Source: Pseudoalteromonas obscura (GTDB lineage Bacteria > Pseudomonadota > Gammaproteobacteria > Enterobacterales > Alteromonadaceae). From it: a stretch of 32,000 nt of DNA. The position numbers and the translations under genes are program-made. How positions within the stretch are numbered: the stretch's first letter is position 1; each line of letters begins with the position of its first letter. Where the stretch lies: positions 11,658 through 43,657 of the forward strand of contig NZ_JASJUT010000017.1 of NCBI RefSeq assembly GCF_030135505.1, given 5' to 3'. Below, piece after piece: positions 2,070-30,893 of this stretch. The notes under the pieces were generated by a model. The model was not told the origin of the DNA, did not search any database, and saw only the letters and a list, made by a program, of their open reading frames with translations.

Positions 2070-2903
2070 TTAATGGCCGTTTAAAATTAAGTCTTCGCAG
2101 ACCTCTGCGGTGTCGGTAAACAGATTGTAATGCCCCCAATTAGCAAAAATTTTATATTCGGCATCCGGAATAATTTCGGCAAGCGCCACGGACTCTTGCC
2201 AGGCGACCATATCATCGTTACCTCCACCGACAATGAAGGTTGGGCAGCTGATCTGTTCCGTTAAGGTGCGACTGATCTTAAATTCGTGGGTGGTATTGAC
2301 CAGATGGGCAAACCGTAGAAACGCCTCTTTACCGCTATTGAACGGTGCTTGGATCATCTGTTGGTAGTGCTTATTATCAATACGCGCCAATTTGTCTTGC
2401 ATGCTTTTGGTGTTATACGCCACGATGTTTTGATGGAGAAAATCAAGCTTCTTCTCATCGTGGATCAACATGCGGCAAACCTGACCTATGGTATCGCCCG
2501 TGAGCCCCGGCGTGCCTTGATTAAAGAAATTTGGCGCATTGAATAGCACCATTTTTTCGATTAAACATGACTCTTGTGCCGCAGCAACCAACGCAATTTG
2601 GATTCCCGTACACCACGCAACCAAGGTGAACGAGGGCAAGGCTAACTCGGTCACAATACTGGTTAAGTCTTGAACTTGATCCTGTACGGAATACTCGCGA
2701 AAACGCTCATCGTATACACCAGGAAACCCCCGGCGTCGCCAGGTCACAAAGTTATGACCGCGCGCCACCATGGCATCTGACAACGCCTGTGTAATACAGC
2801 TGTCGACACCCAGCGCATTGATGAAGACCACTGTAGGCTTGGTGTTATCAAACTGATTGAGGTTAACGTCCAGCATTAATCCGTCATGTGCTTGTACTTT
2901 CAT
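2070..2903 (-). CDS. Alpha/beta-fold hydrolase (MupL-like) with an apparent Cys nucleophile
   Basis: 277-aa ORF. The oxyanion region is VVFINALG. The nucleophile elbow reads LVAWCTGIQ, a Sm-x-Cys-x-Gly pattern where GxSxG is expected. The acid region is GGGNDDMV and the His is in NWGHYN near the C-terminus. The ATG overlaps the upstream stop in an ATGA junction (2900-2903). Confidence 0.85.
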   Translation of the reverse strand: MKVQAHDGLMLDVNLNQFDNTKPTVVFINALGVDSCITQALSDAMVARGHNFVTWRRRGFPGVYDERFREYSVQDQVQDLTSIVTELALPSFTLVAWCTGIQIALVAAAQESCLIEKMVLFNAPNFFNQGTPGLTGDTIGQVCRMLIHDEKKLDFLHQNIVAYNTKSMQDKLARIDNKHYQQMIQAPFNSGKEAFLRFAHLVNTTHEFKISRTLTEQISCPTFIVGGGNDDMVAWQESVALAEIIPDAEYKIFANWGHYNLFTDTAEVCEDLILNGH

Positions 2904-5900
2904 AGAGGTGTTTCCAGTTCCAAATTTTGCTGCGCAGATTGCGCGGTCGATTGATGTGAGCTCGGCAAGTTATCTATCTTTGACCAAATATCGCAACTGC
3001 GATCTTGCCATGCATCCACAAATGAACTCTGGCGCTCATTATACGCCTGCTCAGCCGCCAGCTTGTCGCGCCCTCTGAGCTTAAAGTACTCATCCGTCGC
3101 ACTGGCATAGGCGGATATGGCCAGTACAGCTCCCATACCCGCTACAGGTGAACCCGTTCCCGACGCATCCCCGGTAAGCATGATGTTTTTACTGATAAAG
3201 GTACTCGCCCGTGAATATTGCACATCTATGGGTTTGCTGATCCACAACACCTCTCCTACCGAATTTTGCTGTGAGTCACTGAAGAATTGCGCACGCTGTG
3301 CAAGCTGCTCTGCGCTTGGCAGTTCACCATTAGCACTGTACACCGCTACACCTAGTTCATCACGATTTGGATAAAAGAGCCCGAATGCACAACCTGATAA
3401 CTGTTGTTCAGCATCAAAAGAGAATTTGTAGTTAAGTGTTGATCTATCTCCAACGGCACGGCAATGATAGATATACCAGCACTCCTCTCCCTTATTGGAC
3501 GTTTCAATGTCGTAACATATCCCCACAGCCTGCGCATTTGAACTGCACTCGCCATCGGCTAAGATCACCAATTCTGGCGTGACAGTGGAAGTTGACTCCA
3601 ACTGTAAATTATTCAATGTTACGCTGGCTTGCTCAAGCTCTGTCGGCACCACTTTTGCTTCCACATTAAAGTAAATACGCACGCCCTGTTCACGTGCAGC
3701 AATCAGCAGTACATCTTGCAGATCAGCCAAAGAGATAGCCAATACAGACTCGCCCACAAACTCATCATAGGCACTCTTATGGGAGGTACCAGCCGCTGTG
3801 AGTTGGGTCGTCGCTAACTGTGCCTCATCTATCTCTTTTTGATAATAACGCGTAGACTCATTGTCACTGCGGGTATAAAAGAAGTTGTGCTGTGCTATCG
3901 GCGTGCCGCGCTCGATAAGCTGCGTCAGTACACCAAAGCGTTGTAAATAAGGCAGTGCGTTTTGATATATGGTGACCATTTGCATCCGGTCAACGGCCTT
4001 GCGTTTATCAAACAAGTAAACCCGTTCCACCCCATTGAGCACGGCGCTCAACGCTGCCATGATCCCTGCCGGACCTGCACCGATCACCACCACACTGTGT
4101 TCATCAATCTCGTCTAACAACTGTGTGGCGCTGTTCTCGTATTCAAAGCGGTAACCACTGCTCGTGGCCTGAGAGATATAGCCCGGAAGGTCACTTGGCA
4201 TTTGCTTGGCCCCTACCGTCTGAGCCGGTGCTGGTTGCACGCGTTCAATCACTGTAATCAGATCAGACACACTGTCGGCTTGAAGTAACTCACTGCCCAC
4301 TTGAGCTTCGTCGAGTTGTTCAATACCATCGCAAAGCGCAGACACTATCAACATTTTGGTCACTGACGTGACACCTAAGGCTTTGAGTGGCGTTGTCAGA
4401 TGTAGCTCATCACGGCTAAGACCTAAGATTTGTCCAACCGTCTCTACCACTAACTCAGCCACTTCCGTTTGATGTGATGGCTGCACCGCATTGGCATCAC
4501 TGGCCTGCGCAATATCAGTTTCAGACAATGCTGGTTGAGCCGGTGTATCTATCTGCTGTGCACTGTTCAGTGATGGTTTTTGCGCCGCTTTGGGTAGCCA
4601 ACAATGACGACGCGCAAACGGATAAGTCGGCAATGCAATGATCTGAGGCAGGACACTATGTTGCTCACCATAAAGAGACGCCCAACTCAGCTGTCCTCCT
4701 TGCACCCATAACTTGGCCTGTTTTAACAATTCAGTATCGTTCTCAACGTCTAGCTCAATGGATGCATGGCGCGACGTGTGTTCAATATCATGAAAAAAGA
4801 CCTGCGCCTGTGCCTTACCATCTAGCCACGCTGCGAGGTATTCACGTAACTGTTCTATGGTGTTAACCACACAACTCAACCGAGTCGGCATGGCCTCTCT
4901 GCCTTCTATCAGCGTATACGCTAAATCGTCGAGATGAATGTCTTGCTCCGTGCTGAAATGCTCCATATGACGTGTCACCAACTCCTTGAGACGTGTCTCA
5001 TTTTGCGCTGAAAACACCATTACTCGATCACGGCGTACACCTTCTACTTTGGTTGCTGATTTTGCAGTTAGACACTCCTCTAGCACCATACAACAACCCG
5101 AACCACCTGCACCCAAGGTATTGATCATCGCACTTCTGGGCTGCTCAGCTGCTGTCGTCCACGGGGCAAACTTGTCTTGGATAGTAAATGGAGCATTGTC
5201 TAAATCGAGTTTGGGATTAAGTGGCGTATGCAAGATCGAAGGGGTCAATACCCTGTGCTTCAACTGCATGGCGACTTTGATTAGCTGCGTCAACCCTGAT
5301 GCAGCTTCAGCATGGCCGATACTCGATTTAACGGTGCCTATGGGCAGTTTTCTATTACCTAGGGCGTCACAAAACACCTGCTTCATCGCTTGAATTTCAG
5401 CGCTGTCTGACACCGTCGCGCCCGCAACTGAAGTTTCAACATAGTGTATCTGCTGGGGCGTCACTTTGGCCGTTTGCAGGCACCCGGCCATTAAGCGTGT
5501 TAGAGCATCGGGATCAGAGACATTAAATCCATCCGTAGTGCCTTTATGGTCGGTATGCACGCCTTTGATCACGGCCAGTACTTCATCATTATCTTGTATC
5601 GCATCACGCAAAGGCTTCAATAACACCGCACCGACCGTCTCGGCGGGAATAAACCCACCTGATTCACCAAACCCTCGCACAGTACTTTGCTCAGCCAGCA
5701 ATTGAGACTGACTTAACGCCTGATATTTGTAGCCGTGAATAGATAAATTAGTGGCCCCCACAATGGCTAGCCGACAAGCCCCACTGAGTAGGTTTTGACA
5801 GGCAAGATAAATTGCACTGGCAGCCCCCGAGCACATGGTGTCCACCGCCATGCTTGGTCCATGCAGGTCAAAAAAGTGAGAAATACGGTTGGCCATGCTA

Positions 5901-7207
5901 GAGAGCGATGACATGGCCACCATCGCTTTTTTATCTTGCTCGGTGTCAAAAGCATGATACTGCTGATACATAGATGCGGTGTAGACTGCCACCTTGTGAT
6001 CGTATTGTTGTGCCAATTTTTGTTTGGTGTAGCCGCGACTTTCCAGTAGGTTCCAAACCTCTTCTAAGAGCAATCGCTCTTGTGGGTCCATCAACTGTGC
6101 TTCGCGCGGGGAGATCTTAAAAAATAGTGGATCGAACTTATCAACTCCGTGAATAAACCCACCCCAACGACATGCCAACGCAGCACTTTCAGAGCCAAAT
6201 AACGCCGCTCGCTCCTCGGGAATATCAATAACACAATCCATGCCTTGTTGCAGGTTTTGCCAAAATTTAGCAACGTTTTCAGCCTCTGGAAAACGCCCCG
6301 CGACACTGACGATCGCGATATCTTGCTCAGACACCGATGCTGCTGTAGTGTCACGATGCGCTGCACTCTCAGTGCGCTCGCTGTGCGCTTTGGTCTCACT
6401 CGGGGCGCTATCCATTGCATTGGATGCGCGAGCTGGTGCGGAGCTTGGCTGGCCGAATAGCCGCTTAATATTGTCCGTCACCTCAGGTTGATGCATGGTC
6501 TGAGCATGCATAGCTAGCTCTTGCTCAATAAATGTTGGCAGCTTGTCGCGCACCTGCTGACAGAGGTGTTTTTTCAATAGAGAGACTGAGCGCAGCGGCT
6601 TTTGGGCGATTAAGTCAGCCAGTTCGTAAGCTCGACTTAGCACGCTTTTGCGCGGCAGTACTTGCAGCCCCACCCCGCGTTGTTGTAATTCATCACCGCG
6701 ATATTGATTGGCACTCAATAACATCTCACTGCCCAGATCCACGCCCAGCTTGGTGGGCACTATCAAGGTCGACCCCATCCCAGGGGTAAACCCATATTTC
6801 ATAAAGTTGAGGGTGTAATAGCTCTCTTTGCTGAGCAACACGATGTCGGAGAATAACCCCATCACAAATCCGCCGCCGATGGCGTGGCCCTGAATGGCAG
6901 ATATCACTGGCACCCGACACTCTAATGGCAAGCTATAAATATTGACGTCGCTAAAGTTGCCCTGTGTGTCATTTAACGACAACAGGCTATCCTGAGTGCC
7001 ACCACTACAAAAATAGCTGTCGAAGCCGGTGATAATGACCGCTTTGCAAGTTCGATTTTCCTCTATTTTTTTATACGCTTGCATCAACCCTGACAAAATA
7101 TCACGGCTAAACATATTTTTATTGTCACGGTCTTCCATGGTGATCTGGACAACACCGTTATTCTGCTCGATGATGGAAACAACCGAGTTGATGATTATTT
7201 TTGTCAT
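2900..7207 (-). CDS. Multidomain PKS-associated protein: enoyl-CoA hydratase (ECH2, decarboxylase type), non-elongating KS0, ACP and FAD-dependent monooxygenase (a MupK+MmpE-like fusion)
   Basis: - ECH fold at the N-terminus: VIITGFDSYFCSGG, AIQGHAIGGG.
- KS, about 5075-6330: the Cys is present (DTMCSGAAS, codon 5831-5833). The EAHGTGT motif is replaced by ETSVAGA, with Ser at the His position (5429-5431).
- ACP: LGVTSV, Ser codon 4364-4366.
- Flavoprotein monooxygenase, about 2903-4110: VVIGAGPAGIMAA, ILADGECS, TGDASGTGSPVAGMG.
- Start: I prefer ATG 7207 (MTKIIINS...), which lies 4 nt after the upstream stop, over the track's start at 7255. Confidence 0.9.
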   Translation of the reverse strand: MTKIIINSVVSIIEQNNGVVQITMEDRDNKNMFSRDILSGLMQAYKKIEENRTCKAVIITGFDSYFCSGGTQDSLLSLNDTQGNFSDVNIYSLPLECRVPVISAIQGHAIGGGFVMGLFSDIVLLSKESYYTLNFMKYGFTPGMGSTLIVPTKLGVDLGSEMLLSANQYRGDELQQRGVGLQVLPRKSVLSRAYELADLIAQKPLRSVSLLKKHLCQQVRDKLPTFIEQELAMHAQTMHQPEVTDNIKRLFGQPSSAPARASNAMDSAPSETKAHSERTESAAHRDTTAASVSEQDIAIVSVAGRFPEAENVAKFWQNLQQGMDCVIDIPEERAALFGSESAALACRWGGFIHGVDKFDPLFFKISPREAQLMDPQERLLLEEVWNLLESRGYTKQKLAQQYDHKVAVYTASMYQQYHAFDTEQDKKAMVAMSSLSSMANRISHFFDLHGPSMAVDTMCSGAASAIYLACQNLLSGACRLAIVGATNLSIHGYKYQALSQSQLLAEQSTVRGFGESGGFIPAETVGAVLLKPLRDAIQDNDEVLAVIKGVHTDHKGTTDGFNVSDPDALTRLMAGCLQTAKVTPQQIHYVETSVAGATVSDSAEIQAMKQVFCDALGNRKLPIGTVKSSIGHAEAASGLTQLIKVAMQLKHRVLTPSILHTPLNPKLDLDNAPFTIQDKFAPWTTAAEQPRSAMINTLGAGGSGCCMVLEECLTAKSATKVEGVRRDRVMVFSAQNETRLKELVTRHMEHFSTEQDIHLDDLAYTLIEGREAMPTRLSCVVNTIEQLREYLAAWLDGKAQAQVFFHDIEHTSRHASIELDVENDTELLKQAKLWVQGGQLSWASLYGEQHSVLPQIIALPTYPFARRHCWLPKAAQKPSLNSAQQIDTPAQPALSETDIAQASDANAVQPSHQTEVAELVVETVGQILGLSRDELHLTTPLKALGVTSVTKMLIVSALCDGIEQLDEAQVGSELLQADSVSDLITVIERVQPAPAQTVGAKQMPSDLPGYISQATSSGYRFEYENSATQLLDEIDEHSVVVIGAGPAGIMAALSAVLNGVERVYLFDKRKAVDRMQMVTIYQNALPYLQRFGVLTQLIERGTPIAQHNFFYTRSDNESTRYYQKEIDEAQLATTQLTAAGTSHKSAYDEFVGESVLAISLADLQDVLLIAAREQGVRIYFNVEAKVVPTELEQASVTLNNLQLESTSTVTPELVILADGECSSNAQAVGICYDIETSNKGEECWYIYHCRAVGDRSTLNYKFSFDAEQQLSGCAFGLFYPNRDELGVAVYSANGELPSAEQLAQRAQFFSDSQQNSVGEVLWISKPIDVQYSRASTFISKNIMLTGDASGTGSPVAGMGAVLAISAYASATDEYFKLRGRDKLAAEQAYNERQSSFVDAWQDRSCDIWSKIDNLPSSHQSTAQSAQQNLELETPL

Positions 7208-7211
7208 TGTT

Positions 7212-7991
7212 TTAACTTTCCCATGGCAGCTTGCCGCTGTCCACATAACGTCCAATATTGGTTACCACAGAAGGCAAAGAAAACGTTGCTCGATTTTCCT
7301 GTACCGCGATCGGCTCGTGTTCAAGTAATTGTGGGTTCAATGTATTCATATAGTGTTTGTGCCGTATTATGCCATCACGAGGTAAGCGTCTTAGACGCAG
7401 TAAATGTCGTCTTAGCAACTCATCTAAGTCATCGGACACGGCGTCCGCCAGTCCCCAATTGGCAACATCGTGGGCGTTAAAAGGGGAGGTCATCAAGGTC
7501 ATATAGTTGGCTTTTTGCCAGCCAACTTTTTTGATCAAAAATGGCATGACACAGGCGGGCAAAATTCCAAAGATGAGTTCTGACAAACTATATTGTGCGC
7601 GACTACCTGACAATACAATGTCACATGCTGCAACAAATCCCATCCCGCCGGCATTGACCCGACCTTCAACCACGGCAATGGAGATAAATGGTCCCAGCGC
7701 AATTCGCTTCCACAGCGTGTACAGTATACTTGGGTCGTGTTCACTACCCTGCTGGTTGTCTGTGTACTCTTGTTTGTCCATCCAAGAAAAGTCAGCGCCG
7801 AAACAAAACACGTCCGGCAGTCCTTTGATAACCAATATGTTGCTGCGCAACTCGCAGTCGTCGATCACCCGCAGGCACTCTTCAATCATTTGCTTATTCA
7901 AAGTATTCTTATGGTTAGGTCGGTTAAATTGAAGCGTACATATCTCCGCATTATGACTAACCTTGATCATCTCATACGTCACGATTGACAC
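7212..7991 (-). CDS. Enoyl-CoA hydratase/isomerase family protein, ECH1 dehydratase of the beta-branching cassette (MupJ-like)
   Basis: 259-aa ORF with a crotonase fold: LQFNRPNHKNTLN, FCFGADF, VEGRVNAGGMGFVAACD. It sits between the HMGS and the ECH2 domain. The start is GTG 7991, the first codon after an in-frame stop. ATG 7970 (MIKVSH...) is an alternative. Confidence 0.88.
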   Translation of the reverse strand: MSIVTYEMIKVSHNAEICTLQFNRPNHKNTLNKQMIEECLRVIDDCELRSNILVIKGLPDVFCFGADFSWMDKQEYTDNQQGSEHDPSILYTLWKRIALGPFISIAVVEGRVNAGGMGFVAACDIVLSGSRAQYSLSELIFGILPACVMPFLIKKVGWQKANYMTLMTSPFNAHDVANWGLADAVSDDLDELLRRHLLRLRRLPRDGIIRHKHYMNTLNPQLLEHEPIAVQENRATFSLPSVVTNIGRYVDSGKLPWES

Positions 7992-8001
7992 TCACACATC
8001 T

Positions 8002-9267
8002 TTATTGGAATTCATATTCTCGATGAAAATTATTGATCCGCTTCAAATACAAACGAGGACTCAACTGCTGTTGTTGTTGGATCTTATCGGTGATTGGGCA
8101 TTCAACCTCCACATCTTGGGTACCAAAGCGCACGTCTTTGTTTTGTCGTAAAGATCTTTCATACTCTTCGATGGAGAGCTGATAGCGACTATCCAAATGC
8201 GATGCGATATCCAGTGACTTTAAGCGTGCTTGCCCCTGCTCGGTGACAATACCACTGTAAAATTCAGAGCAGCATCCTGAACCATAGGCAAAACACCCGA
8301 TCCGTCTGGGCGTGCTGAAATCCCCCGCTTCTATCACCCCCGCCAAAGACACATACAACGCCCCGCCCATAATGTTACCAATGCGCTGACAATAGGTCAG
8401 TCCAGGCGTCACCCGCTGGTTATAATCGGCTTCGATTTGCGCCGGAGGTTGCTGCGCAAATTTTCTCATCAACGAGCGGTGCGCACCTTTAACCATGCCG
8501 CCAAATGGAGTATGAAATGCCAAATAGTCAAATGTATGTGCGTAGTTCGCCCCGTCAACACGTTGCTGGTACTGCAAAAAGGTTTGTTCACAACAATCTA
8601 AATAAGACATCAAAGAGATATCTGCATTGCCCGCTTCACTGTCTGGCTGAGGTCGGCAGGTATCCATGACCTCATAAGAGTAATAACCGCTGGCTCCAAC
8701 ATCCAACCTAAAAATTTCCGGTTTATTGCTGATCAGCATAGCCACTGCGCCAGCGCCACCCGAAGGCTCTGAAAACGCCCAATCTTTTTCATTGACGTCC
8801 TCTTCTCCTAAAACCATAAATCGACAGAGATCCACCGCAATCACTAAAGCTTTAGCACCAGGTGAGGTGTTAGACAAAATGAAGTTCGCTGCATTATGTA
8901 AACCAACCGTACCTGAGTAGCACGCTTGTTTTACCTCAAACACCCGGCAATTTTTATTCAAGCCAAGGTGATCATGAACATAGGTGCTAATGGATTTACC
9001 AAAATCAATGCCTGACTCAGTACAGGTGATCAGCATTTCGATGCTGTTTTTTTCTTCCTCACTCAATGCATCCAAAATGGGCTTGGCAGCATTGACGGCG
9101 AACGTGACCGGATCTTCACTGGCCAGTGCCACGGTTTTTTCTGACATCAATAAATTGTTAAAGCGTGCGATATCAAGTTCGCGGTGATCGATCAGTTTAC
9201 GTACATCCAAACACGCTGTGCCCGCATATACATTCATCGCTTCAATCCCTACTTCACTGCATTCCAT
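8002..9267 (-). CDS. HMG-CoA synthase homologue (HCS) for polyketide beta-branching (MupH-like)
   Basis: 421-aa ORF. The N-terminus VGIEAMNVYAG is typical of HMGS. The active-site Cys region is EVKQACYSGT. AGGAG lies 6 nt upstream of the ATG at 9267. Confidence 0.93.
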   Translation of the reverse strand: MECSEVGIEAMNVYAGTACLDVRKLIDHRELDIARFNNLLMSEKTVALASEDPVTFAVNAAKPILDALSEEEKNSIEMLITCTESGIDFGKSISTYVHDHLGLNKNCRVFEVKQACYSGTVGLHNAANFILSNTSPGAKALVIAVDLCRFMVLGEEDVNEKDWAFSEPSGGAGAVAMLISNKPEIFRLDVGASGYYSYEVMDTCRPQPDSEAGNADISLMSYLDCCEQTFLQYQQRVDGANYAHTFDYLAFHTPFGGMVKGAHRSLMRKFAQQPPAQIEADYNQRVTPGLTYCQRIGNIMGGALYVSLAGVIEAGDFSTPRRIGCFAYGSGCCSEFYSGIVTEQGQARLKSLDIASHLDSRYQLSIEEYERSLRQNKDVRFGTQDVEVECPITDKIQQQQQLSPRLYLKRINNFHREYEFQ

Positions 9268-9290: not shown

Positions 9291-10532
9291 TCAAGGTTTA
9301 GTGATACACACCGCGGTGTTTATCCCGCCAAACCCGTAACTCAAACTCAGCGCTTGCTTGATGTTGGTTTCATGCCTAGTCGTCGCCACCCAATTAAAAT
9401 CTGTTTGTATGGGGTTTTCTAAATTTAAACTGGGGTGTAAAAATCCCTGTTCCATCTGGATCAAGGTCGCGATGATTTCAAGGCACCCAGCGGCACTCAG
9501 AGCATGACCAAAAAGGGACTTGGTCGCGTTCAATGGCGCACCACGCAGTCCTGTTTTGGCCAATGCCTGCAACTCGGTCTCATCTCCTAACACCGAGCCA
9601 CTGCCATGCGGATTGACATAATCAATGTCTGACGCCGTCATCGCTGAACAGTGCAATGCCTGTTGGATCACTGCGACTTCCCCAGCCAAAGAGGGATCTG
9701 GATTGCGATTACCATCCATCACCACTGCGCAGCCAGGTATAGCGCCGCGTAGGTGAACCCCTCTTTGCAATGCGTGCTGATGGCGTTCAAGTACTAATAC
9801 GCCACAGCCCTCACCATAAATAAAGCCATCTCGTTGTTGGTCAAAAGGTCGACAAGCCTGAGTGGGCGCATTGGCAAATCGACTGCTCCCCATGGCACCT
9901 AAAGAGGAAAATGCATGACATTCCCAGTAGGATAAATCCATCAAAGCGCCAACCACAACGCATACATCCAGTGCCCCACTTGTCACCGCTTTTGCCGCTT
10001 CAATTACCGCCAGTTGTCCACTGGCGGAGGCTCCGCCGAGCGAAAAAGCACTGCCGCGTATGTCAAATAGCTCAGTACAGATCCCACAGATATCTGAATC
10101 CATGAAATTTAATGCATAGCTGGGCTGAATAAAATACGGTGCATTTTTACGCTTGTCACGCAAATTATTTAAGTGTCGCTGCTGTACATTGCTGCCACCG
10201 ACAATCAGGCCTATTTTTTCAGGCTCAACGGTATCTAGTTTAGCATCAGTCCACGCCTGCTGCAGCGCCACCACTGCCGCTTTCGCACTCAGTGAAAAAG
10301 TACTCAGGTTATGTGCATCAAACTGTTTTGGCATCACCAGTGGCGCAAGCTCTGCGCCAATAAATGGGTCGTCAAAACAGCGCCCTTCTCGGGCCATATA
10401 TGAAAACGCCGAAGTGCCTTTTTTCAGTGCCTGAGAGATGGCTGCAATGTCCTGCCCGATCGCAGTCACGGCCCCCATGCCAGTGATCAGCGCAGGCGCA
10501 TTACGCATATTAGCGGCGATTGAGTCTGTCAT
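9291..10532 (-). CDS. Free-standing ketosynthase-like decarboxylase (KS with active-site Cys replaced by Ser), MupG/PksF-like
   Basis: 413-aa FabF-like ORF. The active-site region reads SLGGASASGQLAV, with Ser where Cys is expected. Both His motifs are retained (NPHGSGS, LFGHALSAAG). The ATG at 10532 overlaps the upstream ACP by 23 nt. An alternative ATG at 10508 lies just after that stop. Confidence 0.9.
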   Translation of the reverse strand: MTDSIAANMRNAPALITGMGAVTAIGQDIAAISQALKKGTSAFSYMAREGRCFDDPFIGAELAPLVMPKQFDAHNLSTFSLSAKAAVVALQQAWTDAKLDTVEPEKIGLIVGGSNVQQRHLNNLRDKRKNAPYFIQPSYALNFMDSDICGICTELFDIRGSAFSLGGASASGQLAVIEAAKAVTSGALDVCVVVGALMDLSYWECHAFSSLGAMGSSRFANAPTQACRPFDQQRDGFIYGEGCGVLVLERHQHALQRGVHLRGAIPGCAVVMDGNRNPDPSLAGEVAVIQQALHCSAMTASDIDYVNPHGSGSVLGDETELQALAKTGLRGAPLNATKSLFGHALSAAGCLEIIATLIQMEQGFLHPSLNLENPIQTDFNWVATTRHETNIKQALSLSYGFGGINTAVCITKP

Positions 10533-10776
10533 GCAAGAGATCTATCAGTTCATCCAAATTGGTCGCCGACATGGTGTCAGTCATCGGTATTCTGAGTGAC
10601 AATGCCGCCAAAATATCCACGATAATTTCAACCCGCTCCATCGAGTTCACACCCAAAGCGGCTAAGCTATCGCCCTGCTTAAACGTATGATCTTGCAAAG
10701 AGGGGACTAGCTGACGAATACAATCTAACACCACTGTTTGTACCTGACTTCTTTCGACATTGACTGCGATATTCAT
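10510..10776 (-). CDS. Discrete acyl carrier protein, donor ACP of the beta-branching cassette (mAcpC-like)
   Basis: 88-aa ORF with the phosphopantetheine motif LGVNSMERVEI. Its ATG overlaps the TGA of the upstream PKS gene (ATGA at 10773-10776). Confidence 0.88.
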   Translation of the reverse strand: MNIAVNVERSQVQTVVLDCIRQLVPSLQDHTFKQGDSLAALGVNSMERVEIIVDILAALSLRIPMTDTMSATNLDELIDLLHDRLNRR

Positions 10777-13700
10777 AGTACTTCTTCCATCTGTTTATGT
10801 TCTTTATGTTGACCGGCCACACCTAAGTGTGCGTCTTGTGTCGCCTCATCGCTGCGCTGTGCAGCTTGTAAGGCTCGGATTATTTCCTGCGCTTGTTGCA
10901 TCCCTTTGCTCTCTAACTGGCTTTGGATATACCCGGAAAAACTTTCCAACGTGTTGTGTTCATAGACGATATCGGCGTTCAAACTGAGCTGCATGGTCTG
11001 ATTGATCACCTTAATCCACTCCATCCCGGTAATTGAATCCAGCCCTAGATCCGCAAATCGAGTCGCCGCTTTGATTTCCTGCTCAGCCATCATCAAAACC
11101 GTTGCCAACGACGTGCGCAAAAAGTCTAACGAGGTGTACTCACTCGGCGCTTGCAATGACACCGATGAGTCGAGCTGCGCAGCATCACCTGTCGATGTCT
11201 GTGGCTCAGCAAACAGCGAAGTCAGATACTGAGAAAACGCTGCTGGCGTCGGGTGTTCATATACCGCATTAGCCTCAATGTGCGTGCCAAAATGGTTATT
11301 AATGGCGCGGATCCATTCAACCCCAACAATCGAGTCTAAGCCCAAATCAACAAAGCGAGACTGCGCGCGAATATCCCCCGCATCGAGCAACAAAGCATTT
11401 GCCAAGGTGGCGATAACGGTATTGATCACCGCCTCATCATCTGCCGCTTCTTCTTGCGCGGGTGTAGACAGCGCTGTTTCCGTCATTTCAGGCTGCACTG
11501 CCGACGCCTCGCAAGCCCCACTTTGCTGCAAGTGCGCATGCAACTGATTGATGCTAGGGTATTCATGTACGCGCTCGACTGCCAACGCCAAATTATACTG
11601 AGCATTGATGGCACGTACCCACTCTACACCAACGATGGAGTCTAAGCCAATATTTGAAAACGGCGTATTGTCGGATATTTCATCTTCGTTCATCATTAAC
11701 GCCTTGGCCAAACTCGCTCGTAAAAAGTCCTTGCTGAAGGTATCTGTGCCTTCGCAAGCATGGGCCTTAGGCGTTTCATTCACTGTCACCATCTCTACGG
11801 ACGAATCCAACTGAGGTGCAGGGGTTTGCGCCTTTTCAAGCGGCCGAGCAGGCGCTGTTAACGCGACTTTTTTCACCGCAAACAGCTGCGGATCGACTAA
11901 TTGTATCTTACCCGATTTGCGCTCCTGTGGTGCTGGTAAAGCAGGTGTATTGCGCGATAGTGCATTCACCATCTGAGCACGTAACGCTTCATCACTGGCT
12001 GGTTTCCAGTAGCGTTTTGCCACAAATGGATAGGTCGGCAAGCTGATTTTCACCGGGCTCTGGTGATCATATAAAGCATGCCACTGAATCTCTCTCCCTC
12101 GCAACCAGGCACTGACAAGCTCTTTACAACGCACATCTCTTTGCGCTTCATCGGTGCGCTTGATGGTACTTAAAAAGCTTGGGTCTAGTGGCGTAGACTG
12201 CGCTTGGTTTTCGTCAGCAACTCCCGTGCATACCAGGCTATTCAACCAACTTTCAGCTTCCGCTGGCACACTGTCAGCGGCTAAGAATCGCTCTAACCCT
12301 GTGTGTATCTCTGCCAAGTCGCCAGCCATGCATGCCAATCGGTAGTCAAATGTTTCGCGACCCGTTTGCAAGGTATATGCAATGCGCTGTACATCGTCTT
12401 GAGATAGCTGCTCACGCCTTAAATGGTGCAGTAGATTACTGGCCATCTCTTTGAGCTGTTCGTGACTTCTGGCAGATAGTGTGATCACTTGAAGGTGCGA
12501 TCTATTGTTTCCGTGTTGCTCTACCTGTTTAGGCGCTTCTTGTACAATCAGGTGGGCATTTGAGCCCCCAGCACCAAACGATGACACTCCAGCAATACGC
12601 GGGGCATCATCACGACTTGGCCATGGCGCCAGCTGCTGTTGCACAACAAATGGGGACTGCGCAAACTCAATTTTGGGGTTTATCTGTTCACTGTGCAATG
12701 AAGGCACGAGTTGCTGGTGTTTCATTTGCAACAGCACCTTGGTCAGACCCGCGATGCCCGCAGCACTTTCACAGTGGCCAATATTGGACTTCACAGAACC
12801 AATTGCGCAGAGATGGTCTTTGTTTTTATCGGTTGAGAACGCTTTATTTAAAGCGGCCACTTCAATGGGATCTCCCAGCGAAGTCCCCGTACCATGTGCC
12901 TCCAGATAACTGATCTCCTGAGGCCTAACCTTGGCTTGTGCCAATGCCCGAGCGATCACCGTCTGCTGAGCCGTGGGGCTAGGAACAGAGTACCCATAGG
13001 TTCTGCCGCCATGATTGACCGCACTGCCTTTGATCACGCCGTAAATATTGTCGCCATCTTGCAGTGCTTCACGCAACGGTTTGAGTAGCACCGCCCCTAC
13101 ACCTTCACTGGGCACAAATCCGTCCGCCTCAGCGCTAAAGGTTTTACAGCGACCAGTTTGCGATGCAAACCCGCCATATCCCAGCATCAAGTATTTTGCA
13201 GGGTGAATAGACACATTGACGCCGCCAGCAATGGCCGCTTTGCACTCACCGCTGAGCAAGCTTTGACAAGCTAGGTGAATGCTGGTCAGTGATGACGCAC
13301 ACATGGTATCAATGGCCAAACTCGGACCGTGAAAGTCACAAAAGTAGGATACACGATTGGCAATAGACGACGGGCTCATTGACAATACCATAGGCCGGCC
13401 CAACATGGTTTCCTGCGCACCATACAGTTGATATTCCTGATAAGTCACCCCAACATACACACCGACCGCACCGGGTGTCCCATCGAGTGCAGTGTTTTGT
13501 GCCAAAGACGCCCTGCTATAGCCTGCGTCTTCTATTGCTTCATAGGCCGTTTGTAAAAACAGCCTTTCCTGTGGTTCGATGATTTCAGCTTCGCGAGGTG
13601 AAATATTAAAGAAGCTCGGATCAAACTTATCTACGCCATCGATAAAACCGCCCCACTTTGCATACGTTTTGCCAGGTTTGCCTTTTTCCGCATCATAATA

Positions 13701-16700
13701 ATGACTATGAGCCCAGCGGCTGATTGGCACCTCCGTGATGCAGTCTTGGCCCCCAGCTAACACCTGCCAAAACGCTTGCAGTGTATTTGCTTGAGGGTAA
13801 CGTCCTGATATACCGATGATAGCAATATCCGTATCTTGTGCATCTCCACTTTGTTCTGGGCGAGCGCTAGCGACGGACTCTCTTTGCGGTTCAATCGATT
13901 CAGACGAGCTGGTTGTGCGAGGGGCATCACTCGAACTGGTGGGGGGAATGAGGTGTGCCTCAAGTTGACTGCGGTGTGCAGTCAACATGTATTCAGCCAA
14001 TTGCGCGATTGTGTGATATTCAAAAAATAGGGTTTTTGGCAGTGTCCCATAGACAGATTCCAATTTATTGGTCAGCTTGGTCACCACCAAAGAGTCAATT
14101 CCCAGCTCATCAAAACCTGTATCCTGCCCAAGCTTCTCCTTTGCATACCCCGTCACTTGTGAGATCAGCGCGGTCAACTGTTCACATACTGACGCCAGTA
14201 AGACACCCTCATCGGCAGATGATAAGGCACCAGAGTGCCCTTGCACCCGCGTTTTGCCCGTTAAGGAGTCGCTGTACGCCTCGAGCAAGTCATGTAATGT
14301 ACGATAGGCGTTCGCGGTATTTAAGCTGAAATCATGATCACAATGCTGATTTAACTCATTGACAATGGCATGTAACTCTACGATACCGAAACCTTGCTCA
14401 TCCAGCCCAACATGCAGGTCAATTGCACTCGGTGCCACACCGACAACCACCGCGGCCGCGGCGGTAAATCGCGACATCAGTTCACGCTGCACTTGGCCAT
14501 TATTCGGTTGCGTGGCTTTGCTTGGCAGTGCGATAGGCGCTGCCGCACCAATTGAACGAGAGAAGTGCTGTTCAAGTTTTGCCGTATCGCCAGCAATTGC
14601 TATGGTGCGAGTACGCGCTTGGCGCATCACTTGATACAACACCGACAATCCCGCATCGCGCTCAATAGGCTGCATACCTGACATGTCGTATAGTGCTGCG
14701 AGAATATCATCAGATACTTGCATCCCGCCATCACGCCACAGCCCCCAGCCGATAGCACAACTTTGACCAAAACACAGACCCTGCTCAACGCGCTGTTGTC
14801 GCTGCTGCGCATACAGATCCATAAAGGCATTGGCGGCAGCATAATCTCCCTGTCCAACATTACCAACCATGGAAACCGCTGAGGAGAACAGCACAAAGTG
14901 CTCCAGCTTTATCTCTTCACACGCTTGTCCCAAGTGCCATGCACCATAGGTTTTTGGCGCGAGGACTCGTCGAATGCTTTGTGCATCTTTATTGCGTAAT
15001 AGGCCGTCTTGAATAACTCCTGCACAGTGCAACACCGCATTGATCCCACCATGCTCACGCACGGTATTTTGAACCAAGGTTGTCACTGCATCGAGCGCGG
15101 TCAGATCCACTGTCTCATAGCGCACCGTCGCGCCCATTTCTTTCAAACGGGCGAGTTGATTATCTCTGTCTACATCCAGAGGCCGCTGACCCGTTAAAAT
15201 CAAGGTAGGTGCCTGCACTTTTTGCGCAATATCGCACGCACACAAATACCCCAGCTGACCCAGTCCTCCCGTGATCAAATACACCCCTTGATCGCGCCAC
15301 GGATGAGGCACAGGCACTGTATCAAGCACATCCAGATCGCATGCCATCAATTGCGATGCCTCAGCTTTGAACCAGTGACAATGCCTTTGCTGTTTCGCCT
15401 GATCAAGCAAGTTAAATACCTGTTCTTGTGGCAAGTTCGCAGGCAACTCAATGAGTTGCCCTGTAACATTGTCGTTTTCCAAAGAGCACGTTTTCAACAG
15501 TGCCGACATCGCGGGTAAAGTTGACTGTAAGCTCGGCTCTAGAGGAACCACAACTTGCAAAATTTTATGTGACCTACCCTTGTCGCGTATAATGGCTTCA
15601 AATCGCGCCGTCAATTGAATACAAAATTGCGTAAAACTGGTAGCAGGATGTGCCGTCGAACTGGACAGGTGGACAATCCCCTCTCGTGCCGACAAGGCCG
15701 GGTAATCACACAGTACAATATGTTGCTCGATATCTTCGTCCAGCGGCTCATTGTGCATCTCATCCAGTGCCCGCCAACTCGGTGTCATCAGCAGTACCCC
15801 CGCAGCACTGTCTGTTGCCGATGCTGCTAACGGGCCATCATCTCGGGCCGTTACGGGCACAAGCATCGGCGCTTTTGGAATGTCAATCTGTGCAAAAGGA
15901 TAGCCGGGTAAACTAACGCGCTGATATTGTGTGGGCTTGCTAGGAAGCCAATCGATTTCACCCCCTTGGGTCCACAACTCAGCGATATATTGAAACTTTC
16001 TCTCTGCGAGCCAATGCCTTACCAGCTGTTGTGCAGAAGACTCCTGAAATAGCGCCTCAACCCCTCGGTTTTTATCTACTTTGCCTTGCCACAGCTGTGC
16101 ACTCTCAGTACCCTGCTTATAGGCTTTGAGCATCTCAAGCAAGGCGTCTAACGAGTCAACTTCACACGCCATACGGTATGACATGGCTTCTCTGCCCGCC
16201 TGCAAGGTATAGGTCATATTGGCCAGCGATATGGATGGTTGCTCAGTCAAAAAGTTGATGTACTTGTCCACATAACGCGCCAATCCCGACTCGCTTTTTG
16301 CAGACAAGACAAATAAATAAGATGACTCAAGCGCAGTGCTTTGCGCAGCAGTAGGCGCTTCCTCAACCACAATATGTGCATTGCTGCCGCCAGCGCCAAA
16401 CGACGACACCCCAGCGCGTCGCTTCGCGTTTCTCGAAGCCGTATCCAGCTGCCAATCTGTCAGCGAGTGCTGCAATTTGAACGCAGAGGCTGCAAAATCA
16501 ATATGTGGGTTTGGTTGTTCGGCGTTTAAGGTCGGCGCAAGCTTTTTATGATGCATTTGCAATAACACTTTTGTCAGCCCTGCAATGCCCGCAGCCGCTT
16601 CAAGGTGGCCAATATTGGTTTTTACCGAGCCTAGCGCGCAAAATTGCTGTGCCGATGTACCCGCTTTGTAGGCCTCATCTAAGCCCTTAAACTCTACCGG

Positions 16701-19700
16701 ATCCCCGAGTAAAGTGCCGGTGCCATGCGCTTCAACATAGTTGATATCCGCAGCGCAGAGCCCGGCTCTCGACAGGGCAGTACGAATAAGGTTTTGCTGC
16801 GCTAATGGGCTCGGTACTGTGTAGCCGTTGACCTTACCACCGTGGTTTATTGCCGTACCGCGGATAACCCCATAAATGTGATCACCATCAGCAATGGCTT
16901 TGGCCAAGGGTTTTAATAACACCGCGCCCACACCTTCACCGGGCACAAACCCATTTGCCTGCGCGCCGAACGCACTTAACGTACCATCTTTGGACAATAC
17001 ATTAAGCCTAGTGAACTCAGCAAATGTGGAGGGGTGCGTATAGGCATTCACGCCGCCGGCAACAGCCACATCACACTCTCCGGCATAGAGATGCAGGCAA
17101 GCTTCATGGATGGCAGACAAAGACGACGAACACGCGGTATCGACAGGCATACTCGGGCCGCCAAAATTAAAGCGGTAAGAGATCCGATTGGCCGCTGAAA
17201 AATAAGAGTCCTTATAATTGTCAAATCCAGCTTTAGAGATCCCGACAAAGACGCCGACCGTATCACGCTCCAATGCCTTGGTGGTGTAACCAGCATCTTC
17301 AACGACATGCCAAGCGCACTGCATAAAGAGCCGCTCTTTAGGACTCATATACGCAGCTTCAAAAGGCGGTAAATTGAAAAACTCATTGTCGAAATAATTG
17401 AGCCCGTCTAAAAACCCGCCCCACTTTGCCGCCGCTTTAAAACTGTCTCCTTCGCCATCAGCTTGTGCGTCAAAGTACGCTGCAATGGGCCAGCGTTCAT
17501 TGGGGATCTCTCGAATGCTGCTTTTACCAGCAGCCAAGTTTTGCCAAAACTCAAACACATTGTCCGCATCTGGATATTGTCCAGCAAGCCCGATGATGGC
17601 AATGGGTTGTCTCGTGAACGACGGCTTACTCGCGGTGAATTTCCGGCGTGCACCCGAACCGCTCGTTGACTGCTGAAAATGCCGTTTACAATGGTCAATC
17701 AACTTGGCGGGGGTTGTTGCTTCAAACAACACCGCAGGATCTATCTGGGTGGCTAATTTCTCACTCAATGCTTTTGACACCCTAGATACCAATAAGGAGT
17801 CAAACCCCATATCGCTAAATTCCCGCTCAAGGTCAATGTCCCGCTCTGAAACGCGCAAATGTTCAGCAAGTATTGCAATCAATATTTTTGCAATGCGATG
17901 CTCATCATCGCCTGTCGGTGCTGGCTCTATAGTGATGTCCATCGCGGTATCGAGTGTCTGTGGCGCTATATCGGGTGCTATCCAATAGCTTTTTAGGTTA
18001 AATTGTGTGCCTGGCAGATGCACGCGCTGACGCTCTTCGGGCACCATTTCAGGCCACTCACAATGGCCGGTTTCCAGCCATTGTGCCGCAATCGGTTGAG
18101 CCTGCTCGCCAAGCTCTTGACTGTGTCCATGTTCAAAAACATTTGAATTCGCTCGCGCTTGCAACACATCTTCGATCTGTTGCAATAGCTGCTCTCTCGA
18201 TGATGCCAAAAAGATGCAACGATAGTCATGGCTGTCTCGGCCGTGTCGCAATGTGAATGCCAGATGTGAAAGTGGATATGCACGCTGGTTTAATACCTCG
18301 CGTAGCGCAGTGAGTTGGGCGGTGAAACACGCTTTATTCAGTGCTGACACCGGCAGCGCCCAAACTTGCTCACCTTCGGGCTCCCCCTTAACACTTGGCT
18401 CAGACTCCCGATCTAGACCTTCAATTAACACGTGGGCATTATTGCCACCTGCCCCATACGCATGGATCCCCGCCAGTCGATTGCGCGACGTCTTTGGCCA
18501 CGGTATGGTATCTGTTGCCAATTGACAGACACTGTGCTTGGGATCAATATCCGCACTGATCTGGTCAATACCGAGTATCTTGTGTATTTTTTCGCTTTGC
18601 AAACTATGAATGACTTTAAACAAAGCGCCCAATGAAGACGCTGAGTGCATATGGCCGATCATCGGTTTTAAAGTACTCACTTTGCACTGAGCTGGGCGCA
18701 ATGCGACTCCCTGTTGCTGCGCTAGGTTATTAAGTGCAAGGTTAAATGCATCCCACTCGCAAATATCGGCAACCGGATTACCCATGCCCTGAGCTTCTAT
18801 ATAGTCGACCTCTCGCGGATCTATGTTGGCCTTGGCGTAACATGCTTGGATCAGAGATGCATGTGCATTGGTATTGGGCGCAGCAATCGACGCAGAACGA
18901 TTGCCATTATAATTTACCGCTGAATTTTTGATCACGGCATAGATAGCATCCCCATCTTTGCGCGCACGAGAATAGGGTTTAAGTAAAATACTGGCCACCC
19001 CTTCCGCTCGTAAATAGCCATCAGCATCACTGCCAAATGATTTCACTGTCGGTGTTGGACTCATCTGTTGCGATTGCGACAACTTAACGAAGGTATCTGG
19101 TCGCAGCAATAGATTCGCCGCCCCGACTATGGCCTGATCAATCTCCCCCGCGCGCAGTGCAACCACAGCTCTGTGTATCGCCACCGCAGCACCAGAGCAC
19201 ATTGTGTTAACCACTTCACTGGGACCTGAAAAATCAAAATAGTACGAAATATTATTGGCAATCATACTGTCCGATTGATGTAGACTCTCTCCAGTATCAT
19301 AACCCGACTCAATCAAGTTCAATAAATATTCATTGCGTTCAAAACCAACAAAGACCCCTGTATTTGAGCCTTTCAGTGCTTGCGGACGATAACCTGCATT
19401 TTCCAACGTGTTATACACCGACATCAATAACAAACGTTGCTGGGGATCCATACGCTCTGCATCATCGGGTAATAACTTAAAAAAATGAGGATCAAAACTT
19501 TGGATATCGGGAATAAATCCCCCCCAACGACACCGCATTTTATCTGGCTGAGCTTCCTCGGTTTGCACTTCATCAGCATATAAATGCCAGTCAAAACGCG
19601 ATTGAGGGATTTCCTCAATCAGAGACTCATCTTTATCTAAATGCCGCCAAAACTCAGCCACTGATTGGCAACCGGGTAAATACCCTTCTAACCCCACAAT

Positions 19701-30037: not shown

Positions 30038-30310
30038 ATGAGTAACGCAGCAACAGCTAGAACATTGGTAATTAGCTTTATTGAAGAAATGAATCGTTCA
30101 TCACTACGTGGAGACGAGATCCAAAATGACTTTGAGCTAAAAGATAAACTTAATATCGATTCATTAAACAAGCTCATTTTACTGACCCGAGTCACAGAGC
30201 ACTTAGGTATTGAGTTTGGCACAGCCGATAAAACCATTAATGACTTCACCACAGTCAACGATCTGATCTCATTTGTTGAATCACACACCTCAGCACTAGA
30301 AGTGTCGTAA
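30038..30310 (+). CDS. Discrete acyl carrier protein (mAcpE-like)
   Basis: 90-aa ORF with the motif KLNIDSLNKLIL. AAGGAG lies 11 nt upstream of the ATG. Confidence 0.8.
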   Translation: MSNAATARTLVISFIEEMNRSSLRGDEIQNDFELKDKLNIDSLNKLILLTRVTEHLGIEFGTADKTINDFTTVNDLISFVESHTSALEVS

Positions 30311-30503: not shown

Positions 30504-30893
30504 TCACCTTATCGCTCTCATCTGTGATCCCTGAGCCATATTGCCATATCTTAAACCTGCCTTTTTAACCATATGCGTCACTTTACCCCCTTTGATGGTA
30601 GCATACGCCGTCGTCGTTGATTTGACGACGTTTGTCTGTGGTCAGTTCAAGAAAACCAAGATACCTTTACCCTTAATATGGATCTCATTATCCTTAAAAC
30701 GCTCGCCAAACTAGGATTTCCAAAAGCACCATAGGCGCTTTCCTATTGTTGGCGCATACCGATGAACCCAATGATAAATAGTTGTGTGTTCAGCGCAGGC
30801 TCCCGCTCTCAAACATTGCTTCCAACTCGTGGTCACTGTATTCACATTAATCCCAATCAACTTAAAAATAGGAGCTAATTCACTCAATGGTAT
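30504..30893 (-). pseudogene. Decayed IS6-family (IS26-like) transposase relic
   Basis: My minus-strand translation reads ...LRAGACAEHTTIYHWVHRYAPTIGKRLWCFWKS*FGERFKDNEIHIKGKGILVFLN*PQTNVVKSTTTAYATIKGGKVTHMVKKAGLRYGNMAQGSQMRAIR*. This parallels Tnp26 segments as I recall them: VDHSTIYRWVQRYAPEMEKRLRWYW, DETYVKVNG.W.YLY, KTAYATIKGIEVMRALRKGQ and GEMRLVSR. There are in-frame stops at 30711-30713 and 30642-30644. Most of the DDE core is missing between the two halves. Confidence 0.65.

Follow-up and report, generated by a model that had tools for sequence, protein, structure and literature searches.

A TmpE orthologue in a thiomarinol-type gene cluster of Pseudoalteromonas obscura, whose well-preserved oxygenase domain is probably silent for the main product

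The closest described systems are those that make mupirocin and thiomarinol. In 2024 the mupirocin protein MmpE was shown to transfer its chain from a KS0 domain to an internal ACP, on which epoxidation is carried out by its oxidoreductase domain (MmpE_OR), a class A flavin monooxygenase (FMO); MmpE_ACP of this mupirocin homologue was characterised as well (PMC7619045). MmpE_OR is the 10,11-epoxidase, and thiomarinols are without the epoxide (PMC7619045, PMC8159325). The thiomarinol protein TmpE was described in 2011 as a MupK-MmpE fusion with MupK at its N-terminus (PMC3069032) and in 2024 as TmlK-KS0-ACP-OR, its OR being called non-functional since thiomarinols keep the 10,11-alkene (PMC7619045). 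In the literature consulted, this label is drawn from product structure only. An earlier note on the DNA analysed here treated the fusion without recognising TmpE; the fused protein is TmpE itself (PMC3069032, PMC7619045). What the note said of MmpE is borne out: its oxidoreductase is tied to a 10,11-epoxidation absent from thiomarinols (PMC7619045, PMC8159325). MupK and MmpE are, as it stated, separate proteins in mup clusters, and in two Pseudomonas loci a gap of 10 nt lies between mupK and mmpE. The on-line oxidation on the internal ACP that it suggested is exactly what was demonstrated for MmpE in 2024.

The 32,000-nucleotide stretch of P. obscura DNA analysed here (the window) is, as judged by homology, a thiomarinol (tml) cluster. 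The ORF of interest (minus strand, 2900..7207, 1435 aa), delimited by ORF scan and translation and annotated by Pfam, NCBIfam and protein searches, is by the same token the TmpE orthologue (ECH2-KS0-ACP-OR), an already described protein whose fused architecture is not new. Its neighbours, named by homology and synteny, are likewise on the minus strand. On one side lie a tmlJ-like ECH1 for the dehydratase step of beta-branching (7212..7991; NCBIfam PRK07112, 340 bits against a cut-off of 250), then, as members of the beta-branching cassette, a tmlH-like HMG-CoA-synthase homologue (8002..9267; Pfam/NCBIfam), a tmlG-like free-standing KS (9291..10532; NCBIfam PRK07103, 571 bits against 445) and a discrete, tacpC-like donor ACP (10510..10776; Pfam PP-binding), and finally a tmpA-like trans-AT PKS of 3020 aa (10773..19835). 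Pfam finds three KS, one KR and five PP-binding stretches in this last protein, and in its sequence the ACPs are clustered at the C-terminal end. On the other side, a tmlL-like alpha/beta hydrolase (2070..2903; Pfam) is translationally coupled to tmpE, the stop of tmpE and the start of tmlL overlapping in ATGA. The gene order tmlA-tmpA-tacpC-tmlG-tmlH-tmlJ-tmpE-tmlL is conserved at the locus and is the same in 2ta16, Alkalimonas and metagenomic loci; the locus was also found in P. luteoviolacea 2ta16, NCIMB 1944 and Vibrio sp. S9_S30. Elsewhere the window carries a MupA-family LLM gene, IleRS and AMP-ligase/SDR/KS genes, and two small ORFs (30038-30310 and 30711-30887) that gave no match in a Pfam search. 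Megablast of the tmpE ORF against the PLSDB plasmids gave no match, pTML1 being either absent there or too diverged in DNA; the identity of the ORF was established by protein searches. The window protein is 99% and 92% identical to P. luteoviolacea proteins and 66% identical to TmpE of SANK 73390, with which it is collinear (100% coverage, E=0).

The longest minus-strand frame extends from 2900 to 7255 with a TTG start, and the likely start inside it is the ATG at 7207 (MTKIIINS...). The N-termini of all homologues agree with this ATG, GGGAAAG is found about 10 nt upstream of it, and the stop of tmlJ lies 4 nt upstream of the tmpE start. No internal stop was found in the frame 2900-7207. Pfam and NCBIfam coordinates place the four domains in this one frame in the order given by the earlier note, a crotonase-fold ECH2, a KS predicted to be non-elongating, an ACP and a class A FMO, and the motifs it quoted for the KS and the ACP are present as described below.

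The ECH2 (aa 7-253; 6449..7189) is a decarboxylase-type crotonase by NCBIfam, Pfam and structure matches. Pfam ECH_1 covers it with E=1e-55, and the PksI-type NCBIfam model PRK07110 scores 337.5 bits against a curated cut-off of 215, which places it with the PksI/CurF type and sorts it from the product of the upstream gene, a PRK07112 (PksH, ECH1) protein. Its closest solved structures are PksI (4q1g, E=3e-87) and the ECH2 of CurF (2q35, E=7e-62). His234 aligns with His226 of the CurF chain and with the PksI histidine that is replaced by Ala in 4q1j; the paper on the CurF structure numbers this residue His240. The catalytic histidine is thus common to Bacillus subtilis PksI, the CurF ECH2 and this domain, whereas the lysines that were probed in those two proteins do not keep their positions here or in MupK. 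The domain is under strong constraint (dN/dS 0.005 against the 2ta16 allele), and decarboxylase activity on 3-methylglutaconyl-ACP is predicted for it.

The KS0 (aa 295-715; 5063..6325), placed by Pfam and residue alignment, is followed by a KS-flanking, RhiE-like linker subdomain (aa 716-870; 4598..5062; PF22336 and PF22621 at aa 729-798); the profile matches to KS aa 295-658 and to the flanking subdomain up to about aa 800 have E=4e-63 and 1.5e-26. In the alignment the KS keeps Cys459 (nt 5831-5833) in the Met-Cys motif DTMC459SG and its second histidine, His632 (nt 5312-5314), and Ser593 (nt 5429-5431) replaces the histidine of HGTGT, E591-TSVAGA standing where EAHGTGT is expected. Members of both clades, MmpE and TmpE, show exactly this pattern, and the Met-Cys motif is reported to be specific to their KS domains (PMC7619045). 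The predicted integral ACP (aa ~905-990; 4238..4495) was located by alignment and by a Pfam PP-binding match at aa 919-984 that falls slightly below the cut-off (19.7 against 20.8 bits). Ser948 of its LGVTSV (nt 4364-4366) aligns with the phosphopantetheine Ser of the GLNS motif of MmpE_ACP.

The OR (aa 1036-1410; 2978..4102) was assigned as a class A flavin monooxygenase by Pfam FAD_binding_3 (aa 1038-1365, E=1e-18), alignments and an AF2 model searched with Foldseek. It carries the GxGxxG fingerprint as GAGPAG (aa 1043-1048), the acid at the end of beta-2 as Asp1068 (LFDKR), ADG at aa 1217-1219 and GDA at aa 1346-1348, the GD segment LTGDASGTGSPVAGMG aligning with GDAAH..P..G.G of solved enzymes. 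All 19 family-invariant residues are present, and we found no single inactivating lesion in the motif and family alignment. The residue two after DG is Cys, against Arg or Lys in MmpE, His162 in PHBH and Asn in the solved HspB. We considered this Cys as a possible lesion and keep it as a weak lead only, solved active enzymes having Asn or His there. The model (pLDDT 88.4, pTM 0.88) has PHBH, UbiH, PnpA, PieE and Tet(50) as its top Foldseek matches (E about 1e-20, TM 0.6-0.7) and predicts a fold of the PHBH type, in which NAD(P)H has no domain of its own; phmmer against PDB sequences gave marginal matches only, so that profile and fold searches were needed. The family is very small: from 1.84 billion proteins, an exhaustive representative search retrieved eight representatives at E<=1e-30, and a word-indexed search that used only this domain returned three proteins. 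Within it the OR is orthologous to MmpE_OR (39-44% identity), the two forming sister clades in both the KS and the OR trees. The domain looks like a complete FAD enzyme. Its description in the earlier note as an apparently intact oxygenase, with the GAGPAG, ADG and GDA motifs present, stands as far as motifs, fold and selective constraint go; it does not extend to activity, which intactness of sequence does not show.

The live part of the earlier note is its question of which oxidation the oxygenase performs. Following the literature, we do not file the OR of the window as an active 10,11-epoxidase, since thiomarinols carry the 10,11-alkene, and none of the oxygen atoms in known thiomarinols calls for this domain. 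TmuB installs the 4-OH, the only additional oxygen that thiomarinol has (PMC11956838) and the group that sets it apart from pseudomonic acid C. C4 adjoins the beta-branch made by the fused ECH2, which had prompted the idea that the OR is the installer of this hydroxyl; this candidate was rejected, TmuB, an alpha-ketoglutarate dioxygenase, being the demonstrated late-stage 4-hydroxylase. The 92%-identical allele is that of strains 2ta16 and NCIMB 1944, whose products have been assigned by MS as alkene-type thiomarinols (PMC5069768, PMC6528606). The most likely explanation is that the OR leaves the main product without an epoxide and owes its retention to a non-catalytic role, in folding or docking, or to a minor one, and the role for which it is retained is the least certain step of this explanation. 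Overall, we consider it probable that this ORF encodes the TmpE module of a trans-AT PKS of the thiomarinol type, within the mupirocin family, on a plasmid-like element, with an OR likely silent for the main product.

It could also be that the OR is a decaying relic of an ancestral MmpE-type epoxidase, with no selected role and simply not yet lost in the lineage of the window, an account that we regard as rather unlikely. The alkene of the thiomarinols and the non-functional label would fit it, as would the independent loss or damage of the OR in four sister lineages: the Alkalimonas OR has a nonsense mutation (TAC->TAA) and a 40-bp deletion, that of SANK has lost two residues after the GD motif, at the start of the following helix (GMG--VAISAY), metagenomic clusters L007 and L008 have the OR split off and the FAD-ribose acid changed from Asp to Val, and metagenomic cluster L005 is without it. 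In these other thiomarinol-type lineages the OR appears to be dispensable. It also evolves somewhat faster relative to the KS in the TmpE clade (OR/KS distance ratios of 1.45-2.29 against 1.09-1.48 in the MmpE clade), and four positions that do not vary among the compared sequences of the MmpE clade are replaced in all those of the TmpE clade (from MmpE to TmpE: R/K to C/N at DG+2, YEF to YKF, SPN to SPV/SPI and GW to AS). Several comparisons speak against this account. Against the 2ta16 allele, dN/dS is 0.13 for the OR (47.5 non-synonymous and 83.5 synonymous differences, dS 0.43) and 0.089 for the KS, and a control pair of MmpE sequences from Pseudomonas mup-type clusters gives 0.099 and 0.058; relative to the KS, constraint on the OR is no weaker than in the control pair. 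The OR/KS ratio of the window lineage, 1.45, is the lowest of its clade and lies inside the MmpE range, and every family-invariant residue is kept. In their degree of conservation the FAD-motif segments match those of the MmpE clade; compared with the rest of the OR they show no difference between the two clades, and this comparison therefore cannot separate a structural from a catalytic role. The OR of the window has been kept by strong purifying selection, which is unexpected for a functionless domain.

The conservation would also fit a working flavin monooxygenase acting on an ACP-bound intermediate, by 10,11-epoxidation or at another position, a reading that we hold to be distinctly unlikely. 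Its products would then be minor or unstable, would be converted further, or would have been wrongly assigned as known thiomarinols with which they are isobaric. Here the intact GxGxxG, beta-2 acid, DG and GD motifs, the confident PHBH-like model, selection equal to that on the MmpE control pair, the ACP directly upstream with its Ser kept and the absence from the window OR of the deletion seen in SANK all count in its favor. P. luteoviolacea metabolites are moreover known by MS only, with many strain-specific features lacking an assignment, and minor epoxidised or otherwise oxidised congeners are therefore possible. In contrast, the neutral loss reported from MS/MS, C11H20O4, agrees with a left-hand fragment of the alkene type (the formula as interpreted here), pseudomonic acid C amide, which is of the alkene type, was detected, TmuB already accounts for the 4-OH, in Alkalimonas, whose cluster is nearly identical, the OR is inactivated, and the TmpE clade has replacements at positions invariant in MmpE_OR. 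It is a long shot, then, that the OR of P. luteoviolacea-type TmpE is a selection-maintained, FAD-competent enzyme responsible for an unrecognised on-line oxidation or for epoxy-thiomarinol congeners isobaric with known ones. If true, the non-functional label would be limited to the lineages with lesions, that is SANK, Alkalimonas and the split and deleted metagenomic variants.

The ECH2-KS linker (aa 254-294; 6326..6448) is of low complexity and fast evolving (dN/dS 0.43), and the fusion had hinged in the earlier note on its being free of a splitting stop or frameshift. It is in frame in all lineages: the 99%-identical P. luteoviolacea database protein, Vibrio sp. S9_S30, P. luteoviolacea 2ta16, NCIMB 1944, SANK 73390, Alkalimonas and three metagenomic clusters. 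That an error of sequencing or assembly created the four-domain ORF by joining separate mupK-like and mmpE-like genes, which in Pseudomonas mup clusters do lie as separate genes 10 nt apart, is next to inconceivable, since the same in-frame junction recurs at 53-99% identity in at least eight independently assembled strains or metagenomes and the fusion has been published for pTML1 too.

Drawing on the work on mupirocin homologues, we can propose how the module would operate. The TmpA-like PKS would deliver the chain that TmpE receives. The N-terminal ECH2 would catalyse the last, decarboxylative step of HMG-type beta-branching, forming the methyl branch at C15 while the chain sits on the C-terminal tandem ACPs of TmpA. 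The KS0, with its Cys kept and the decarboxylation His missing, would then take the finished chain without elongation and pass it to Ser948 of the internal ACP, from which downstream tailoring and esterification may proceed.

As architecture, this changes nothing: TmpE, its origin as a MupK-MmpE fusion, the internal ACP and the on-line epoxidation that its mupirocin counterpart carries out have all been described in the literature. What is added is small and comparative, namely that a domain assumed dead is conserved as tightly as the OR of MmpE, and that close relatives broke or deleted theirs. One modest conservation signal thus appears to be left unexplained, why a supposedly idle OR is so well preserved here. 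The natural series of OR states (intact, two-residue deletion, split, nonsense plus frameshift, absent) could be used to probe a structural role of the oxygenase domain in handing on the chain from the TmpE ACP, and intact alleles might serve to engineer thiomarinol and mupirocin variants that carry the epoxide or the alkene.

Among known systems, ECH2-KS junctions at beta-branching sites, in which the KS directly follows the ECH2, also occur in Bat3 (kalimantacin/batumin) and in Paenibacillus and Clostridium PKSs. These Bat3-type PKSs are larger multimodular proteins without a C-terminal flavin monooxygenase and have only 30-37% identity to TmpE. MmpE of Pseudomonas fluorescens and relatives is closer, with 50-54% identity in the KS0, 39-44% in the OR and a homologous ACP. 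It shares the loss of the HGTGT His, the Met-Cys motif and the position of the ACP Ser with TmpE of the window, and has the same neighbors, the HCS cassette upstream and a hydrolase downstream. The two differ in that the ECH2 of TmpE takes the place of an N-terminal docking region in MmpE, and in that mupirocin carries a 10,11-epoxide and thiomarinol does not. The closest match in architecture is TmpE of SANK 73390, encoded on pTML1, which has the same four-domain order, the same KS0 Met-Cys motif and the same site between tmlJ and tmlL. Its identity to the window protein is 85% in the ECH2, 77% in the KS, 62% in the ACP and 63% in the OR, the last two being the most diverged parts, and where it is two residues shorter after the GD motif, the protein of the window is full-length, like MmpE.

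The reading frame claimed in the earlier note at 2900-7207 was confirmed at exactly those coordinates by ORF, profile and motif evidence. It runs on the minus strand without interruption from a TTG at 7255 or an ATG at 7207 to a stop at 2900, and the ATG is the more plausible predicted start because the N-terminus that it specifies (MTKIIINS...) is that of every close homologue. This ATG has a GGGAAAG ahead of it and comes 4 nt after the ECH1 gene terminates; at the other end, the stop codon of the frame and the start codon of the hydrolase gene that follows overlap in an ATGA. The top database matches to the protein were Pseudoalteromonas luteoviolacea "polyketide synthase" entries (99% and 92% identity, the latter being the allele of strain 2ta16, identical in NCIMB 1944), followed in third place by a protein of the thiomarinol producer Pseudoalteromonas sp. 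SANK 73390 (66% identity over full length). The genes lying upstream in the same orientation encode a luciferase-like monooxygenase of the MupA family, a trans-AT PKS of 3020 aa, a small ACP, a free-standing KS, a homologue of HMG-CoA synthase and ECH1; those lying downstream encode an alpha/beta hydrolase and another KS-led PKS that extends past the window edge. The plus strand carries isoleucyl-tRNA synthetase, AMP-ligase, SDR, KS and ParB genes. This predicted gene content is the mupirocin/thiomarinol set, and we assign the ORF at 2900-7207 as the TmpE orthologue. A plus-strand ORF of 90 aa past the tmpF-like KS (30038-30310) contains "NIDSL", a motif resembling that of ACPs, and matched no Pfam family at E<=0.01.

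The same cluster is found in a genome recorded as Vibrio sp. S9_S30 (98.7% nucleotide identity to window positions 1-32000) and in Alkalimonas (about 88-90%), in both cases on contigs of about 34-100 kb. Because of these copies and contig sizes, together with a ParB gene at 31511-31969 and the G+C contrast between the PKS genes of the window (48-51%) and their flanks (41-46%), the sequences suggest that the thiomarinol-type cluster is plasmid-borne and moves between genera. At the tmlG/tmlH junction, the Vibrio copy is longer by about 1.4 kb (2509-3898 of that locus), possibly an insertion element; this DNA has no counterpart in the window (about 9299-9310).

Profile searches located four domains in the 1435-aa protein: crotonase (aa 7-253), ketosynthase (aa 295-658, its flanking subdomain continuing to about aa 800), carrier protein (ACP, aa 919-984) and, at the C-terminus, a FAD_binding_3 flavin monooxygenase (OR, aa 1038-1365). 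The crotonase domain had been read as ECH2, and rightly so: with PRK07110, the PksI-type model, it scored 337 bits against a cut-off of 215, and PRK07112, the PksH-type model, is the one matched by the gene directly upstream, which makes the fused domain one of the ECH2 (decarboxylase) type. Among solved structures, its nearest are those of PksI and of the ECH2 domain of CurF, and His234 is aligned to the catalytic His of each. Alignment also bore out the predicted non-elongating ketosynthase (KS0), with Cys459 kept within a DTMCSG motif and ETS593VAGA in place of the expected EAHGTGT; the second His, His632, is retained. Ser948 of the ACP (LGVTSV) is aligned to the Ser of the GLNS motif of MmpE, the mupirocin homologue. 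Over the KS-flanking subdomain and the linker that joins it to the ACP (aa 716-900, 4508-5062), dS from the 2ta16 allele is only 0.17, vs 0.31-0.64 in the other tmpE domains, and this stretch could be a recombination tract.

mupK does not occur as a separate gene in the thiomarinol cluster; the TmpE N-terminus aligns to MupK, and a simple fusion of adjoining mupK and mmpE has been proposed as its origin (Fukuda et al. 2011, PMC3069032). In two Pseudomonas mup-type loci, the mupK stop lies 10 nt before mmpE. More recently, TmpE was given the architecture TmlK(ECH2)-KS0-ACP-OR, a Met-Cys motif was found to be exclusive to the KS domains of MmpE and TmpE, and TmpE_OR was labelled non-functional because thiomarinols keep the 10,11-alkene (2024, PMC7619045). 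A tml-like cluster and thiomarinols A-D are known from P. luteoviolacea 2ta16 and NCIMB 1944 (2016, PMC5069768). In the literature examined (main text and supplement), we found no sequence-based reason for the inactivity of TmpE_OR.

A series of lesions gives signs, at the sequence level, that the OR is dispensable in related ECH2-fused clusters. In Alkalimonas collagenimarina AC40, whose TmpE is 87% identical to the window protein, the OR is pseudogenised (13061-14259 of locus L002) by a TAC->TAA nonsense codon at its start and a 40-bp frameshifting deletion that leaves the GD motif out of frame, and ECH2-KS0-ACP remain intact; in the annotation this gene appears as two, a PKS of 1020 aa and an "FAD-dependent monooxygenase" of 328 aa. 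Two metagenomic clusters, assigned by sequence to the mupirocin family, also have an ECH2-fused TmpE. One (L005, 10001-13321) lacks any OR, its ACP-ending gene being followed after 117 bp by the hydrolase; in the other (L007/L008, 6831-11398, on ten contigs), the OR is a separate 465-aa ORF with an ATGA overlap, in which Val replaces the acidic, FAD-ribose-binding residue of beta-2. Finally, TmpE of SANK 73390 lacks two residues right after GMG (near GSPVAGMGVAISAY), at the start of the helix following the GD motif, whereas this segment is present in the window protein and in all MmpE sequences. The gap, of which we found no mention in the literature examined, is a candidate sequence reason for the inactivity of SANK TmpE.

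Relative to KS, the OR evolves somewhat faster across the TmpE clade than across the MmpE clade (OR/KS distance ratios 1.45-2.29 vs 1.09-1.48), and within the TmpE clade the lesion-bearing lineages have the highest ratios and the window lineage the lowest. Four OR positions fixed among the compared MmpE-clade sequences are changed in every TmpE-clade sequence: Arg or Lys two residues after DG to Cys or Asn, YEF to YKF, SPN to SPV or SPI, and GW to AS. From sequence, none of the four can be called inactivating; HspB, a solved enzyme, for instance has Asn two residues past DG.

The window OR appears intact, as the earlier note had it from the GAGPAG, ADG and GDA motifs; it also has the Asp ending beta-2 and all 19 residues invariant in an 18-sequence family alignment. 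Its AlphaFold2 model is confident (pLDDT 88.4, pTM 0.88), with PHBH, UbiH, PnpA, PieE and the tetracycline destructases as best structural matches (E about 1e-20, TM 0.6-0.7). Between the window and 2ta16 alleles (Nei-Gojobori; overall dS 0.37, OR dS 0.43), dN/dS was 0.13 for the OR, 0.089 for KS0 and 0.29 for the ACP, vs 0.099, 0.058 and 0.17 in a control MmpE pair of similar divergence from the mup-type clusters of P. orientalis and Pseudomonas sp. BRG-100. With OR/KS ratios of 1.46 and 1.7, the OR of the window lineage is as constrained relative to KS as that of the control pair, epoxidase activity having been demonstrated for P. fluorescens MmpE and not for these two proteins. Relative to the rest of the OR, the FAD-contacting segments are conserved to an equal degree in the TmpE and MmpE clades. 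The ECH2 domain (6449-7189) differs from that of 2ta16 by 1 non-synonymous and 49 synonymous changes, a dN/dS of 0.005, far tighter than in the free-standing Pseudomonas MupK pair (0.068).

Most likely, the OR of the window allele is a non-epoxidising domain selected for a structural or other reason, which would reconcile alkene products, repeated losses elsewhere and strong constraint here. The C11H20O4 MS/MS neutral loss reported for the P. luteoviolacea compounds fits, on our reading of the formula, an alkene-type fragment. Since these metabolites were assigned by MS only, a cryptic catalytic role of the domain is a less probable alternative. An OR dN/dS of 0.13 is not easily reconciled with a relic devoid of any function. 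The 4-OH, the extra oxygen of thiomarinol compared with pseudomonic acid C, has a late-acting enzyme of its own, the alpha-ketoglutarate dioxygenase TmuB (PMC11956838, PMC13316724), so that the other role that would have been most attractive for the OR falls away.

For the other three domains, mupirocin work and the conserved residues lead us to propose that ECH2 would finish beta-branching on the TmpA-bound chain, that KS0 would accept this chain with no condensation, and that the internal ACP would hold it for the following steps. In the mupirocin system, the internal ACP of MmpE has been identified and chain transfer to it from MmpA via KS0 demonstrated (2024, PMC7619045). The earlier note thus read a known protein correctly, and both the architecture and the on-line oxidation that it put forward were already published, the latter for MmpE (PMC7619045). 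Set beside these known systems, one modest unexplained point stands out: a supposedly idle OR that is strongly conserved, alongside damaged alleles that form a natural series.
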